Part shown: positions 2,552-32,759 of the stretch, one piece after another
Layout of the letters: each line of letters starts with the position of its first letter
Position numbering within the stretch: position 1 is the first letter of the stretch
Virus record (IMG/VR): IMGVR_UViG_3300036819_000331
Span: 1 to 64,000 of that record
Source: a virus
Reading direction: 5' to 3' (one strand)
DNA: 64,000 bases
Program-made: the position numbers and the translations under genes
Notes under the pieces: model-generated
Seen by the model: the letters and a program-made list of their open reading frames with translations, nothing else
Database searches by the model: none
Told to the model about the DNA's origin: nothing

Positions 2552-2901
2552 CGTGTAGGCTCTTGGGGATTAAGGGCCTTTGCAGCGATGGCCTGCGAGT
2601 GATGTTCATAGTGTTGAGAGGCGATTTTCCCGAGGGCAACTTCCAGCCGCTCAATCTCCACCACCGCCTCCTGCACCAGAGCGATGAGGGCGGCTTCACG
2701 AGGGCGGATATTCCAGGCATTGACAGCGGCTTCCTGCCCACGCTGTTGGCGCGTTTGGAGTCCGCAGTCAAAACATTGCACGGAATAGTTGCCGAAGCCA
2801 TGGGCCGTCAGAGTGTCACGGGCGGCTCCGCACCGTGGGCATGGCTGAAGACCGTGCAGCAGTTGCGTGAGCGCCGCGAGCTTGGTAAGGATGTCGGTCA
2901 C
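2548..2901 (-). CDS. Lar-family restriction alleviation protein
   Basis: LQPCPRCG...YSVQCFDCG...AVNAWNIR pattern typical of the Lar family. Confidence 0.7.
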   Translation of the reverse strand: MTDILTKLAALTQLLHGLQPCPRCGAARDTLTAHGFGNYSVQCFDCGLQTRQQRGQEAAVNAWNIRPREAALIALVQEAVVEIERLEVALGKIASQHYEHHSQAIAAKALNPQEPTR

Positions 2902-2976
2902 TGGAACCCCGTTTTGACACTGGTTGAAACGATCCCGCTCCCGCCTTCACCAAGGATGTAGACTTGTTGCGGGGTT

Positions 2977-3186
2977 TTGGGAGGGGATATGAAGAAAAGC
3001 AGCCTACTTGCCGGTCTGGGCTTTGCGTTTATGGGGACGATGGTTCTGCTCAACAGCCTGGGCAATCCACGGATCGAGGCGGCCCACTTGCATGGCTCCG
3101 ATATCTTGAGACTCGTCGCTTCGGGCGGGTTGTTTGGCGTCGCCATAATGGTGGCGACGGCTTCCAGATGGGCGAGGAAAGAGTAG
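2977..3186 (+). CDS. Small two-TM membrane protein (antisense moron)
   Basis: RBS GGAGGGG before ATG, two hydrophobic segments, TAGACT -10-like box upstream. Confidence 0.55.
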   Translation: MGGDMKKSSLLAGLGFAFMGTMVLLNSLGNPRIEAAHLHGSDILRLVASGGLFGVAIMVATASRWARKE

Positions 3187-3196
3187 GGGGCGTGAG

Positions 3197-5371
3197 TCAT
3201 GCTTCATCCCTGAATTTGACGCCGGCGGCTTTGATGGCAGTTATTACAGCTTTTGCATGTGCTCGATAAAGTGGCCTGAAACCTTTGGCAATGTCCTCGT
3301 CTTTCAGCAGTTCTGACAGGGCATGCTCAGCAATTCTCGCCGCTTCGGCTTGCGTCAGCTTCGGCGCATAGTTGTCTTTGGCGGCTTGCCAGCCAGCCCA
3401 AGCGGCCTGTACGCTGCCGTTAAGGTAAACTCCGTCGCATTTCGATATATGCCTTCCTGCCGGACCGCCGAATTTGTGGTCAACCCAGTCTTCGAATTCC
3501 TCGCGGTCGCTCATTCATCCCTCCAAGACGAAGCAGGAATAGCGGCGATGGCAGCTCTGGCAGTCTCAACGCAATATTCCCAATGAGCCTTTGGTGGGTA
3601 GCCCCCGTCAGTTTCATCAGGGTTGTCGCCAGCAATCGCGCGTGCGACGAGCTCCACCAGTTCGTGCGGGGCCGAATGGGCTGGGGCCGGGGAGACTTTC
3701 ACTCCCAGTTCTTTAGCGGGCCTTTCGGCTTCCTCCTGCGTTTTATCTATATCGCAGGCCACGGCTCCGTGATTCTGTTCAGCGTTGTGCTCGCGGATGA
3801 TGGCGATGGCTCTATCAGCGGGGAAATACTGCTCGCTATTATTTCCGTCCATATGGCCGGTGCGTATCTCTGCGAGCCGGTCAATCAGGGTTTTTGTGGT
3901 CATGATGCTTCCCCCGTGGTTTTCGCGTCCGCTCTCGCGGTAAAGGTCAGCGCATTCTCGACTACCGCCGCGCCGACGTCATCGGTAACATCAAATTTCT
4001 CGCCCGTGACGGTCACAAGGCCATTCTCGATTTTGTAGTGCCGAGTGGCGTACAAGCGCCCACTGAACTTGCTGTAGAAAACGCGGATTGGCCTCTTCAT
4101 ACTCCATCTCCCCCATAAACCGTCACAAAGCAACCCTTCTCCGCATCCCACAAAGGATGCGATCTATCCCCCTCGTCGTAATCCTCGACGCGAACCTCGA
4201 CTCCGGGTGGGATGCCGGTCACGTCCTGCACGAGGCCGCCTTCGACGTGAACGGTGATAGTCTTTTGCGATGCGCTGTTATCAACCAGCGCTTCCCACTC
4301 GACAAGCTGTTCTGGCACTGTAAGGTGGTGATATTCCGCATTATGCTGCTTGCAGTTGTGAATAGCCGCCTTAAGGGAATGCTTAAGGGCGGCATTCTCT
4401 CGGCGCAGCCCGTCCACATACCGCTCATATTCGATGGTTTCTGAGGGGAGGGGCTGGGTCATGATGCACTCCCGCCGGTCTTGTAGTTGGGATTGATAGT
4501 GCGGGCGAGCAGGTCCATCGCGCCATCGGCAAGGATCCGTGCCTTTGACGAGCCTTTCAACCGTTGCGAGCCTTGCAAATAGAGGGCGATTTCCTCAAGC
4601 TTTTCCCGCACGTCCTGAGCGGAGGCCAGAATCTGTCCGGTCATCGGCGGCGCGTCCTCTTCGACGTAGGCGACGGCCTTGCCATCAAGGACTATCGGAC
4701 GGCCATCTTCGTCCGACGAGAATTTGAAATATTGCTCACGCATGATCGCCTCCAGTGCTCGCGGCGAGAGACGAGCGATTCGAGGCGATCGACTCCGATT
4801 GCAGTCTGAGATATGGCCGCAAGACATCAAAGGCAGCGCCGATTACGACGGAGCCAATGTTGCCCTTCTTAACGCCGTTCCGGGTGATGACTTCCGACAC
4901 ATGGTCGTCTATTCGTCGAATTAGTTCGGCCTCGGTGATGCCCTGAGGCTCGTTCGGTGCACCTCCGCTGGCCTTGGCGATGGCGGCGCGGGCATTCAAC
5001 ACGACGGGACATTCACGCTGTACGCCATCAATGCAATCGGCCATATTGAGGTTATGCAACTCTGTCCATTTCACGAAATCAATCAAGGCACTGAGCAGCG
5101 TCTGGTGGCTGTTGCACGCTTGGACGATGAACGCCGCATTCGCCTCGGCCTCTTCGTCATCGCCGCAGTAGCCTATTTCGCAGACCGGGGGCCCATCGCA
5201 GATGCCGTCTTCGTCAACGGGGAAGATCGTATATCCGTCGGTGTCACATAGTTGTGCTGCTACGGAATCGAAGCCATCGCCGTCATATCCCCAAGGCAGA
5301 GGCGTGTGCGTCGTGGCCGAAGATTGTGATTGCGGCTGAAAGGAATCTGTGGAATCAGAATTGGTAGCCAT
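3197..5371 (-). other. Chain of coupled small phage early genes (3197-3514, 3511-3903, 3900-4100, 4097-4462, 4459-4743, 4736-5371)
   Basis: Overlapping starts and stops (mostly ATGA) with GGAG-type RBSs; HTPLPW motif in the last ORF is typical of phage early proteins. Confidence 0.7.
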
Positions 5372-29560: not shown

Positions 29561-29595
29561 ATGCACGCTCCTTCAGTTAGAGGTTGTTGGCGAGT

Positions 29596-29716
29596 GACAA
29601 AGGGCAGGGCGGCGCGCTGCCGCAACATGAGTTCGCGGGGACCCGGCTGCAGGAGCGAAGCGACGAAGCTGGGCGGAACGAATTTGCGGCGAGGGTGCGG
29701 CGTCCCTGCCAGTCAC
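29596..29716 (-). promoter_or_regulatory. Long nested stem-loop upstream of YubB-ParB
   Basis: Arms tgac/gtca, ggcaggg/ccctgcc, gccgcaa/ttgcggc, cccggct/agctggg; loop contains GAGCGAAGCGA. Confidence 0.5.
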
Positions 29717-29761
29717 GGAGAGCCAACAACGGAAGGGGGTTACGGAAAATGCGTGACTCGG

Positions 29762-30040
29762 CTAAATGCCGGGCTCCTGCCCATACTCCCGCTCGTACCA
29801 CTCCTCGAACTGGTCCGGCTTCTGTGCCTGATAACGACACACAGTCCAAAAGAGATATAGCCCCAAACCGGACAGGAATACCGAGCTTGGCCAGTTGCCT
29901 CCCCCGGAGACGAAGGATACGAAATCGAAGGACAAATCGATGACGGCCACAATCATGATGGCGAACCACAGGAATATGGCGACGTAAACCAGAGAATGCG
30001 TAAATCTGCGCTTCATCATCTCGGCTCGGCTCGGGTACAT
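29762..30040 (-). CDS. Small membrane protein (apparently leaderless moron)
   Basis: Two TM segments; TAGAAT 8 nt before ATG. Confidence 0.55.
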   Translation of the reverse strand: MYPSRAEMMKRRFTHSLVYVAIFLWFAIMIVAVIDLSFDFVSFVSGGGNWPSSVFLSGLGLYLFWTVCRYQAQKPDQFEEWYEREYGQEPGI

Positions 30041-30110
30041 TTCCGATCATTCTACGTCCAGTCGCTGGGAGATTTCCATCCACCCCTGCCGATAGGTATG
30101 CTGGGATACA

Positions 30111-30623
30111 GTGAGCCTGCTGGAAATAATCGTGGCGATTGCGACGAGCGTTGCTGGAACGATCATTTACGCTACGGTCGGTGGCGGATACCGGCGCTTG
30201 TTTGGCCAGCAAATCTACATTACTGAGCCGCAGGAAAACGGGTTTCTCGCCCCTGCCGAGTCCCGTCGGGGCACGTCTGCTCATGCGGTTTCCGGAACCC
30301 TGAAACATCTCCCCAAGGGCCACGCCGTATGGCTTATCGTCATCGACGAGAAAAAGGGAAAGCATTGGCCACAGGGGTTCGAGCGCGTGGAATATCACGA
30401 GGCGACAGGAACATGGAGTGGGTACATAACGGCGGACGGGTGGCACCAGGTGACCGTCACGGCGGTCGTGGCTCCTCCGACCACGCAGGAGTATTTCAAC
30501 TATTTTCAGCGCGTCGGGGGAATGACCAAGCACGAGCCGCTGCTGAGCATTCCGTCCGAATGCAAACGACGGCATAGCATTCATGTCAAGGTTCCTCCGA
30601 CTCAGCCGAAGCAGGGTTCCTAG
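30111..30623 (+). CDS. Membrane-anchored hypothetical protein (antisense moron)
   Basis: N-terminal TM segment; TATGCT 8 nt before GTG. Confidence 0.6.
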   Translation: MSLLEIIVAIATSVAGTIIYATVGGGYRRLFGQQIYITEPQENGFLAPAESRRGTSAHAVSGTLKHLPKGHAVWLIVIDEKKGKHWPQGFERVEYHEATGTWSGYITADGWHQVTVTAVVAPPTTQEYFNYFQRVGGMTKHEPLLSIPSECKRRHSIHVKVPPTQPKQGS

Positions 30624-30625
30624 CG

Positions 30626-30808
30626 TCATATAAGACCCCGTTCCTGCGCCAGCCATTCCGGCATCTGCATCACCTTCTCGCTCGCGCACCACTCCGCCTG
30701 CGACTTGGGAAGCCATGTGCTCTTGCTGCCATCGAAGAATTGGTATGCCTTCTCCGTTTCGTGGCGAAGTTCCCCGGCGATTTCGATGATGTCGTGATTC
30801 TTTTTCAT
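30626..30808 (-). CDS. Small phage protein
   Basis: HETEKAY..DG...WLPKSQ...MPEWLA.ERGLI pattern. Confidence 0.7.
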   Translation of the reverse strand: MKKNHDIIEIAGELRHETEKAYQFFDGSKSTWLPKSQAEWCASEKVMQMPEWLAQERGLI

Positions 30809-30861
30809 AGGTGAGCCTCAGATAGCGTAGTCGTGAAGTGCCCTGATAACCTTGAAGCCAT

Positions 30862-31392
30862 ATGGCAAGAATGAAGGTGACGGCCGTTACCGATGCGCAC
30901 GCATGCGCGTTTCTCGGATTCGCAAAGCAATATCAAAAGGCCGGTAACCTTTTGTTTGATCGGCACGACCAAATGCTGGGCAATCCGGCATACTTCCTGT
31001 ATGCGCATACGATTGAGCTCGCCTTGAAGGCTTTTCTCCGAGCCGCGGGCCTTCCCATTGTCACGGATAAGAAGAGGAAGAGTCATCATATAACGGGGTT
31101 GTATGAAGAATGCCATGCTCTCGGACTTAGAATTGGCCCCCAAGACCGTTTCGATATTCGCAACGTTATCGTATTGCTCGAAGGCGCAAATCAAGATCAG
31201 GGCCTTCGATACGCGCGGGGGAAAAGCGCCAGTTTTCCTGATCTGTCGTGGACTCGGGAGGCAGTCGAGAGTCTGCTGGGTGCGGTTGAGCCGAGCGTGA
31301 AGAAGAAGATGGAAAGTGATGGCATTGTCCCAGCCACCCCGGCGAGGTTCGATTTCGTCTTCAGTACGCCGACGAGGAAGACCAAAGCTTAA
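30862..31392 (+). CDS. HEPN-like protein (antisense moron)
   Basis: YFLYAHTIELALKAFL...HHITGLY...LRY. Confidence 0.6.
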   Translation: MARMKVTAVTDAHACAFLGFAKQYQKAGNLLFDRHDQMLGNPAYFLYAHTIELALKAFLRAAGLPIVTDKKRKSHHITGLYEECHALGLRIGPQDRFDIRNVIVLLEGANQDQGLRYARGKSASFPDLSWTREAVESLLGAVEPSVKKKMESDGIVPATPARFDFVFSTPTRKTKA

Positions 31393-31412
31393 GTGCGATG
31401 TCGCGAGGTTGC

Positions 31413-32088
31413 TCATGCCGTCAACTCCTTTCGCATTTGGCCCATGACTGTAGGGTGGCATGCAATATACGGTCTGCGCGTTAGCGGGTCAGTGATCATC
31501 AGCATCTCCCTCCATACCGGTCGGGCGCAGTCTCGCACTCTTTTCATAAGCTTCTTGATAAGCCGCTTTGAGCGATTGCGAGAAAGGGGAGGAAGCTCGA
31601 TGGCCATATAGTTCGGCTCCAAGTAAGGACTCGGATAAACCGGGATTCCGTTCGCTGGAGCGCGCCGGGAGTGATTCCGGGGCCGAAGGGCAGAGGATCG
31701 AGGAAGTTCATTCAGCAAGCCCTTTCCATTTGCGCCAGCGGTCAAGGAAATAAGCCTTCGCGCTCGCGGTGGGTATCTTCTCAAGGCAGGCTGTCGAGCG
31801 CAATTCGCGAAAAGCCTGAGTGATGTCATCCCAGAGTTGGCCGAACGGCGGCCATTGGCCGTCACAGGAGAGCCCGCGACGAATGTTATTGCAATCTAGG
31901 CATGTGTGGTACGAGTCCATCTCGCCTTCCCATTTTCCGGAGAAATAATGGTATTGCTGTCCTGGCAAAATGGGCCGGTGGCACTCATAGCATTTATGCT
32001 GCTTCCGTGCGCGGCGGATGGCCTCCGACTGAAATTCGTAGGCTCCGTCATAGTCCCCGCCACCTATGCAGACTCCGCACCCGGTCAT
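31413..32088 (-). other. Small phage early genes (31413-31607, 31708-32088)
   Basis: Second ORF has RARKQHKCYEC...CLDC zinc motif and an ATGA overlap. Confidence 0.6.
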
Positions 32089-32759
32089 GCCGCTTCCCCA
32101 CGCAACGCCTTCACCAGATACGGGTCCAACTCCGGCTGCCCCAACAGCCACCGCTTGTAATCGGCGGGAATATCCTTGATGGTCGCGCCCTTGTGCTTGC
32201 CGAACGTCATCACCGTGGGAATGCGCGCCAGCTCGCTCCGCATCCATATGCGCTCCCAGGTGAGCGGCCCGGCGGAATCCACCATCCGAGGAATCAGGTG
32301 GGACAGGATGATGTGGCAGTTGTAAACGTCCACATCGGCAGAATGCGCCCCTTTAAGCAATTCGCGGGCTTGCTGGCGGGCGACATGATAGAGAACCGCC
32401 GATTGCGAATAGCTGTCAAGCCCCGGAAAGAAATGCCGAGAGAGCGCCAGCACGCATATGCGCCGGATCTCCGGCTGGCCGATTACCTTCCAGTCGTAAT
32501 CGACGTTGTAGCCGACCAGATACTCTGTGCCCGGCGGTAACGCGAACTCGGTGTATGGCGGGCAGTCCGACAAGTCCTCGTCCATGATGTGATGGGTAGC
32601 CAGCGCCCCGAGGGATATCGGCTTACCAGGGTTATAGCGCTGGAGGAACGAGCCCTCCGGCCTCAGGGTATTCGGATCAGGGACCTTGATCCATGCGGCC
32701 TCGATGAGTCTCGGTTCGACTAATGAAGTTGCCTCCGTATCGAATAAAACTGCGGTCAT
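32085..32759 (-). CDS. DEDDh 3'-5' exonuclease (exonuclease X-like)
   Basis: FDTEAT, VGYNVDYD, AHSADVD, C-terminal MTFGKHKG..IKDIPADY. Confidence 0.85.
   Translation of the reverse strand: MTAVLFDTEATSLVEPRLIEAAWIKVPDPNTLRPEGSFLQRYNPGKPISLGALATHHIMDEDLSDCPPYTEFALPPGTEYLVGYNVDYDWKVIGQPEIRRICVLALSRHFFPGLDSYSQSAVLYHVARQQARELLKGAHSADVDVYNCHIILSHLIPRMVDSAGPLTWERIWMRSELARIPTVMTFGKHKGATIKDIPADYKRWLLGQPELDPYLVKALRGEAA

Follow-up and report, generated by a model that had tools for sequence, protein, structure and literature searches.

A stop-free reading frame coupled at both ends crosses a backward HEPN-like gene in a viral operon

Why should the operon strand opposite a backward gene be readable from end to end, and is it kept so by selection or left so by chance? 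The question is raised by a locus in a 64,000-nucleotide stretch of viral DNA (positions 1 to 64,000 of the IMG/VR record IMGVR_UViG_3300036819_000331; hereafter, the window), where a HEPN-like accessory gene on the + strand (30862-31392; protein P0001, 176 amino acids) lies backward in an operon that runs on the - strand and is crossed, on the operon strand, by an open reading frame (ORF) of 203 codons. An earlier note on this DNA had proposed this ORF to be a "bridge" that keeps ribosomes moving through the operon. From the structure of the bridge, its counterparts in related loci, and its surroundings, we consider the chances about even that the - strand ORF is a pass-through ("bridge" or ambigrammatic) frame that is kept open by selection.

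A coupled frame across a backward gene

The bridge ORF (30805-31416, - strand) runs from the ATG at 31416 to the TGA at 30805 as the antisense of the HEPN-like gene, with 8 codons of its own at the 5' end and 19 at the 3' end, and a longer version could be read from the ATG at 31461, which is the first of the open frame. It spans the whole of the + strand gene as its exact codon-by-codon reverse complement, and its frame is open because that gene contains no TTA, CTA, or TCA codon. An AAGGAG Shine-Dalgarno (SD) sequence (31425-31430, - strand; CTCCTT on the + strand) precedes the bridge ATG by 8 nucleotides (nt) and falls within the final codons of the operon gene before it, gene A (31413-31711, - strand). 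The bridge ATG (31416-31414) overlaps the TGA of gene A (31415-31413) as ATGA at 31413-31416, and the bridge TGA (30807-30805) overlaps the ATG (30808-30806) of the following operon gene, gene C (30626-30808, - strand), as ATGA at 30805-30808, so that the bridge is coupled to operon genes at both ends. The start, the SD sequence, the length, and both overlaps had all been given correctly in the earlier note, and the observation of a stop-free, doubly coupled operon-strand frame across a backward gene was thus confirmed.

The gene crossed by the bridge is a real gene. P0001 has 35 homologues with 37-67% identity in the protein collection, and loci related to it number 25 in the genome collection and 166 in the metagenome collection. 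Its AlphaFold2 (AF2) model is a helical bundle of five helices, with a predicted local distance difference test score (pLDDT) of 74.5 and a predicted template modeling score (pTM) of 0.72, and the top Foldseek matches of the model in the PDB were HEPN proteins (1wol, 4nqf, 1o3u, 1ufb, and 2hsb), with a probability of ~1, a template modeling (TM) score of 0.4-0.65, and only modest E-values of 3e-3 to 6e-2. P0001 itself had no Pfam match at E <= 0.01, and PF05168 was precomputed on two of its distant homologues (P0033 and P0036). Because the canonical Rx4-6H motif (R.{4,6}H) is absent from P0001, which has only RKSHH (Rx3H) at residues 72-76, with H75 being invariant in the family, we use "HEPN-like", which is a fair label and does not imply nuclease activity.

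The two operon genes joined by the bridge are also real. Gene A encodes a conserved phage protein of ~100 amino acids, the four homologues of which are likewise ~100 amino acids long and all end at the same residue, and gene C, encoding 60 amino acids, matches phrog_8389 and is 70% identical to a gene in the related locus L039 and shares 40-51% identity with genes of four viral contigs.

Antisense-stop codons in the clade

The earlier note had cautioned that a frame in codon register with the sense gene is often stop-poor in GC-rich DNA. For the window's gene alone, the force of this caveat depends on the null used, the probability of an open frame ranging from 0.27 by host-wide codon rates to 0.014 by distant-homologue rates. 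The codon usage of its relatives, by contrast, speaks against a pure shadow. The set of close homologues had first been cut at 54% identity, a line drawn post hoc, and the group was therefore redefined by phylogeny, which placed the window's gene in a supported clade of 11 (99/95). The antisense-stop codons in these 11 genes numbered 0, 0, 1, 0, 0, 1, 2, 1, 0, 0, and 1, resulting in a total of 6, whereas the sister of the clade had 3 and the homologues outside the clade had 0-10, with mostly 3-10 in the other clades. With the genes that flank the clade members at their loci as the reference, 19 were expected, or 26 after matching for adenine at the third codon position (A3), and the out-clade homologues gave an expectation of 42, so that the deficit was significant with Poisson probabilities of 4e-4 to 4e-12. 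When only the seven deep lineages were considered, 2 stops were observed against 12-27 expected.

The depletion was furthermore specific to the codons and to the frame. Antisense-stop codons made up 5 of 255 Leu and Ser codons in ten non-redundant close homologues and 169 of 1121 in 39 distant ones (Fisher's P = 6e-11), the use of CTA, TTA, and TCA being 0.011, 0.011, and 0.014 in the former and 0.097, 0.051, and 0.158 in the latter, which represents a drop of about ten-fold. The use of control A-ending codons was 0.20 in the close homologues and 0.19 in the distant ones; GTA, GCA, CCA, ACA, GGA, CGA, AGA, AAA, and GAA were used alike in both, and ATA and CAA were, if anything, commoner in the clade. 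The two remaining antisense frames of the ten close homologues contain 33 and 59 stops, and in the flanking genes of the same loci, TTA, CTA, and TCA are used at 6-8%. Host genes with the same A-ending usage were open in register in only 1-5%; open genes may be underrepresented in this matched set, for which reason a second scoring left the six codons out of account. At fourfold sites, the comparison of the window with the other clade members gave 0.26-0.43 against 0.27 expected, which is near saturation and thus indicates that the lack of antisense-stop codons is not simply inherited. Taken together, the bridge frame appears, from codon usage, not to be just a GC-rich shadow, and selection appears to keep it open. 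Relatives with stops in the bridge frame, which the earlier note had named as evidence against its proposal, do exist (five of the 11 clade members, with one or two stops each), so that the absence of stops is not universal, and the remaining six have none.

The same counts bear on the alternative that the bridge is a shadow ORF without function, which would be open by codon bias and luck, with its joints being operon relics left by the insertion and with no selection involved. An open in-register frame is common enough in the host, being found in 41% of 176-codon host-gene windows and in 20 (19%) of the 106 antisense singleton genes of the host genome, and the purge in the clade reached only P = 0.016 against host-wide codon rates. 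On the other hand, the restriction of the depletion to three codons with all the other A-ending codons unchanged, the shortfall of stops against both flanking genes and out-clade homologues, the rarity of open frames among A3-matched host genes, and the near saturation of synonymous sites all argue against this explanation. The joints of the bridge bear on it as well, as described below, and on balance we regard it as unlikely.

Joints, product and alternative explanations

Coupling at both ends was found in none of the 106 antisense singletons of the host genome, for which the gene calls were crude, and the rough odds of the window arrangement arising without selection, for which relic joints, a 1-in-3 frame match, and an open frame are needed, were 0.2-2%. 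Both results point to more than chance. The individual joints are less unusual. The gene that precedes gene C in L039 terminates in an ATGA from which ATGAGCAAGAAC (MSKNHDII) starts, and the bridge of the window begins ATGAGCAAC, its start, ATGAGCAA, resembling the gene C start of L039. At the same position, ATGAGC is present in the clade members L005, L035, and L039 and GTGAG(C/T/G) in L031, L028, and L004, so that the start recurs as RTGAG(C/T), and an SD-like GGAG lies 7-12 nt before it in the window, L028, L005, L031, and L035. At the other end, the conserved MKK start of gene C makes ATGAAA, and therefore any ORF that arrives in that frame stops there. The bridge start accordingly need not be of a kind peculiar to the bridge: by its sequence, it looks like a relic of a gene-C-type start, not a new one, and the coupling signals can be explained without de novo design by the relic start together with the TGA built into the ATGAAA of gene C. 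A target-site duplication of ATGA was also weighed as a source of both joints, which share only these 4 nt (at most 6/9).

In L126, a distant, moron-free viral contig that carries a homologue of gene C and no backward gene, the joint between a helicase gene and gene C and that between gene C and the next gene are both ATGA. A DNA search of 300 genomes of the family yielded no related prophage. The start joint recurs among loci that carry the HEPN-like gene: an RTGA overlap with a convergent upstream gene was found in five of them (the window, L039, L004, L028, and L031), the upstream genes being unrelated (gene A, a 76-amino-acid gene, a DUF3846 gene, a 77-amino-acid gene, and a 41-amino-acid ORF), and this recurrence exceeds chance by a rough estimate of ~1e-3. 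The ORF in L031 (L031:4567-4692) consists of 41 codons, is hydrophobic, and is ATGA-coupled to a 73-amino-acid gene and GTGA-coupled to the antisense frame; L028, which is homologous to the L031 locus, is without it, and its 77-amino-acid gene joins the antisense frame directly.

The product of the bridge shows little sign of constraint. The protein had no Pfam or PHROG family, and its AF2 model, which was based on a shallow 7-row alignment of antisense translations, had a pLDDT of 36.8 and a pTM of 0.28 with no confident fold. Over six deep lineages, identity was 62% for the sense proteins and 36% for the antisense translations, compared with 31% when synonymous codons were shuffled per gene, and this small excess (z = 6, pooled) probably fits residual shared ancestry. 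The antisense ORFs start 9-60 nt past the HEPN-like stop and end 9-405 nt past the HEPN-like start, and their C-terminal tails, of 3-135 codons, are mutually unrelated. In the alignment of the 3' flanks, interlocus homology ends at the HEPN-like stop codon, save for a short GGCATGAGCA motif. Hence, neither conservation of the two ends nor purifying selection on the encoded protein, the marks of overlapping genes, was found: the ends lie in non-homologous flanks, and the constraint is weak. The bridge peptide thus looks barely constrained, and translation itself, rather than the product, seems to be selected; an open frame with no conserved protein is indeed what is predicted if translation itself matters.

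These properties of the product also bear on the possibility that the antisense ORF is a genuine second gene with a functional protein product, such as an antidote to the HEPN-like protein or a partner for it. The frame has been kept open across a deep clade and travels with the HEPN-like gene into many contexts, preceded by the SD-like GGAG and beginning with the recurrent RTGAG(C/T), and the antisense identity is slightly above the null. However, the starts lie in unrelated flanks, the tails are unrelated to one another, the product matches no family and is predicted without a fold, and the identity excess is small and explicable by residual ancestry, so that we find a second gene improbable. 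The lack of a fold is, for its part, also what a shadow ORF without function would show.

Alternatively, antisense translation could serve for silencing, by letting RNA polymerase from the convergent gene cross the HEPN-like gene and its promoter and thereby shut off, during operon activity, a defence gene that may be toxic. A convergent gene is indeed located 6-170 nt from the HEPN-like stop in 8 of 12 clade loci, with a 4-nt overlap in five, the frame is open without a following gene on the same strand in L028, L004, and L031, and no terminator-like site was detected by scanning between gene A and the HEPN-like gene. This explanation does not account for the bridge of the window passing to gene C precisely by an ATGA, and the toxicity of the HEPN-like protein, which is without the canonical Rx4-6H motif, is hypothetical; we consider silencing very unlikely to be the reason for the open frame. 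Least credible of all is an avoidance of UUA, CUA, and UCA in the HEPN-like mRNA on the sense strand, for example, owing to scarce or attacked tRNAs, with the open frame as a by-product, since, although such an effect would also give a depletion specific to the codon phase, reverse complementation of the three stops gives precisely the avoided codons, out of ~14 A-ending ones, the flanking genes of the same loci use them at 6-8%, and to our knowledge no mechanism singles out these three together.

Neighbouring genes, contexts and parallels

The 4-nt overlap is the norm in this operon. Upstream of gene A lies a phrog_7314-like gene (31708-32247, - strand), the TGA of which overlaps the gene A ATG at 31711 as ATGA; its protein had no match in the viral contigs. 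Gene A is frameshifted near 31644-31660, its first 18 residues being in the frame of the ATG at 31711 and the remainder in the frame that stops at the TGA at 31413, which reflects either a genuine frameshift or a fault of the assembly; a 64-amino-acid product could still be made from an internal ATG at 31607 served by a GGAG. The gene A profile had no match in 400 genomes of the order or in the viral contigs. In another viral contig, L128 (L128:3914-4645), gene C is split in frame by an insert of ~170 amino acids that looks HNH endonuclease-like by eye, with residues 1-19 (95% identical) and 37-60 flanking the insert in one ORF of 243 amino acids. Besides the soil metagenome assembly from which the window comes, short contigs were found in a second soil metagenome run (X2), in which sequences identical to window positions 30897-31267 (the HEPN-like gene) and 31912-32193 (the neighbouring gene) are present, together with looser relatives of gene C that have other flanks. 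A search for RNA runs containing this DNA found none.

On the other side of gene C lies W1 (30111-30623, + strand), a second backward gene that encodes 170 amino acids with a hydrophobic N-terminus. W1 or a remnant of it stands directly upstream of the HEPN-like gene in L039 (L039:3-251), L028 (L028:915-1273), and L031 (L031:3836-3979), and in the window, the conserved leader of the HEPN-like gene (30825-30861, + strand; containing ccctgataaccttgaag) holds, ~25 nt upstream of the ATG, a relic of the 3' end of this partner gene. W1 and the HEPN-like gene, therefore, look like a two-gene unit, which in the window is split by gene C on the opposite strand. In a consensus scan limited to sigma-70-type sites, neither an own promoter nor a terminator was found for the HEPN-like gene, and Rfam, promoter, and terminator scans of the region gave nothing above chance. 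A terminator-like hairpin on the operon strand (30934-30954) was set aside because it is not conserved in relatives. Codon-usage scoring did not distinguish the two strands in the bridge region.

The HEPN-like gene of the clade is mobile. Its neighbours are phage-like genes in the window, L004, and L039, and elsewhere it stands beside genes for a glutamate dehydrogenase (L002), a beta-lactamase-like protein (L003), a cyclase (L031), a PAS protein (L028), and an IS200 transposase (L032). In L030 (L030:4355-4945), it borders directly on part of a gene for malonate decarboxylase alpha (profile positions 53-170 of 546), the frame of which continues into the antisense frame, and the cargo seems to have landed inside this host gene. 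As L003 and L032 retain remnants of gene C upstream of the HEPN-like gene, in addition to the W1 remnants described above, several of the non-phage copies seem, judging from these remnants, to descend from an arrangement like that of the window.

Two further bridges had been claimed in the earlier note, of which only one is comparable. The frame at 29577-30629 (- strand; 351 codons) is the second stop-free operon-strand frame of the region; its start overlaps the stop of gene C as ATGA, and it runs in codon register across W1, which is a real backward gene. Its probability of being open was 0.1-0.4 over W1 and ~0.007-0.11 over the 178 further codons that follow. A candidate gene in a different frame (29762-30040) lies within these 178 codons. 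At 2898-3200 (- strand), the PHROG search left the choice of strand undecided, and the homologue search decided it: there are 11 homologue clusters of 87-165 amino acids, including four of 100 amino acids at 80-100% identity. The ORF is most likely an ordinary operon gene in the coupled chain 3514 > 3200 > 2901, and its + strand partner, which has a TTG start, a shadow.

We return to the pass-through frame kept open by selection. The course of events that we infer is that a mobile HEPN-like gene came to lie backward between two genes of a tightly coupled early operon in a temperate element, where ribosomes finishing gene A would restart at the overlapping bridge ATG, aided by the AAGGAG, proceed in codon register along the antisense frame, and stop at the gene C ATGA, where they could restart. 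The avoidance of TTA, CTA, and TCA by the HEPN-like gene would keep this frame open, and the selected trait would be the passage of ribosomes, not the 203-amino-acid product. The likely benefit would be ribosome cover over 0.6 kb of otherwise untranslated RNA of the early transcript, which may spare the transcript Rho-dependent termination, so that gene C and the genes behind it could stay expressed. What the sequence shows is the arrangement itself, the reality of the three genes, the loss of antisense-stop codons across the clade, and the loose constraint on the peptide; translation of the frame, Rho as the danger, and a gain in downstream expression are inferred.

Several points weigh against it. 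Coupling at both ends was seen in the window only, among the loci examined, and the joints, being explicable as relics, may owe nothing to the bridge. The frame is open in copies whose neighbours are co-directional or host genes and leave nothing to be bridged (the cyclase of L031, the IS200 transposase of L032, and the PAS protein of L028), and L003, which is flanked by genes on the opposite strand, carries a stop. The frameshift of gene A relative to its four homologues may mean that the ribosome relay from further upstream is broken, and polarity of the Escherichia coli type by Rho is an assumption for an acidobacterial host. The openness where nothing is bridged, the gene A frameshift, and the explicable joints also suit a shadow ORF, and the loss of 2898-3200 as a parallel, the crudeness of the control gene calls, and the marginal result against host-wide codon rates are to be added. 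Because open frames occur with nothing to bridge and L003 has a stop, the claim that antisense cargo is retained only when bridged is too strong; stops are present in five of 11 clade members, including L003, and open copies exist outside operons. The data are consistent with, but do not prove, a property that is selected in coupled operons and decays slowly elsewhere. Thus, the proposal in the earlier note is partly supported, by the codon purge, the unconstrained peptide, and the recurrent overlaps, whereas its strict retention rule and one of its similar bridges fell away.

The arrangement can be set beside several known systems. Lambdoid morons are independently transcribed accessory genes between phage genes that have their own promoter and terminator, and the other strand of such genes need not be readable. 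The HEPN-like gene resembles them in being accessory, lower in GC content (0.53, with a GC content at third codon positions of 0.59, against ~0.59 overall in its neighbours), sporadic (present in 5 of 400 genomes of the family), and found in many contexts, and differs in that no promoter or terminator was detected for it. In bacterial operons, genes are coupled by 4-nt stop-start overlaps (ATGA or GTGA), and untranslated stretches of transcript invite premature (Rho) termination; this is established for genes on the same strand, whereas here the overlaps chain across a backward gene. Shadow ORFs and long antisense genes of GC-rich bacteria (10.1101/2021.02.09.430400), including those of EHEC (PMC9927249 and PMC6294744), are similarly long ORFs antisense to annotated genes in a frame opened by codon bias; these papers argue for functional proteins, whereas the bridge product looks unconstrained, the depletion here is specific to a clade and to three codons beyond composition, and the ORF is chained to its neighbours. 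Similarly, at gene 10/olg1 of the Pseudomonas phage Fc02, a gene of the lytic operon overlaps in antisense an accessory gene for exclusion, which the lysogen expresses (PMC9936078); both of those genes have reported exclusion activity, and the part of that report considered here describes no purge of stop codons or pass-through role.

The closest published parallel appears to be the ambigrammatic narnaviruses, RNA viruses of eukaryotes of ~3 kb with a reverse ORF over the RdRp gene, for which, in the portions of the reports drawn on here, reverse translation itself is proposed to be the function and ribosomes are thought to protect the RNA (PMC6884476, PMC8316113, and PMC8155312). As far as those portions go, both systems share a codon-aligned (frame -0) reverse ORF over a whole conserved gene, the avoidance of the same three codons, and a reverse product that is apparently not a conserved protein. 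The window differs in being a bacterial DNA element, in which the reverse frame lies in an operon and has an ATGA joint with a real gene on either side, and in which the suspected threat is Rho polarity. The literature searched held no description of such bridges in DNA phages or of coupling across a backward gene, a blank that does not prove that none exists.

We tentatively propose, at somewhat less than even chances, a general rule that backward cargo in the operons of temperate DNA elements, now including one of Acidobacteriota, is under lasting selection to be ambigrammatic by the purging of TTA, CTA, and TCA, a trait that would travel with the cargo, decay slowly outside operons, and provide a steady source of translated, unconstrained peptides. 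Long coupled ORFs of this sort would, as a warning for annotation, be neither plain artefacts nor ordinary genes. If the rule is true, gene orientation in phage operons would not be free, and a backward accessory gene would pay for its position with three codons. The purge of antisense stops could then be used as a test, requiring only the sequence, for cargo that has lived inside translated operons, and it would open a way to study Rho polarity and the coupling of transcription to translation in hosts that have not been cultured. The bridge would also represent a bacterial DNA counterpart of the ambigrammatic RNA viruses.

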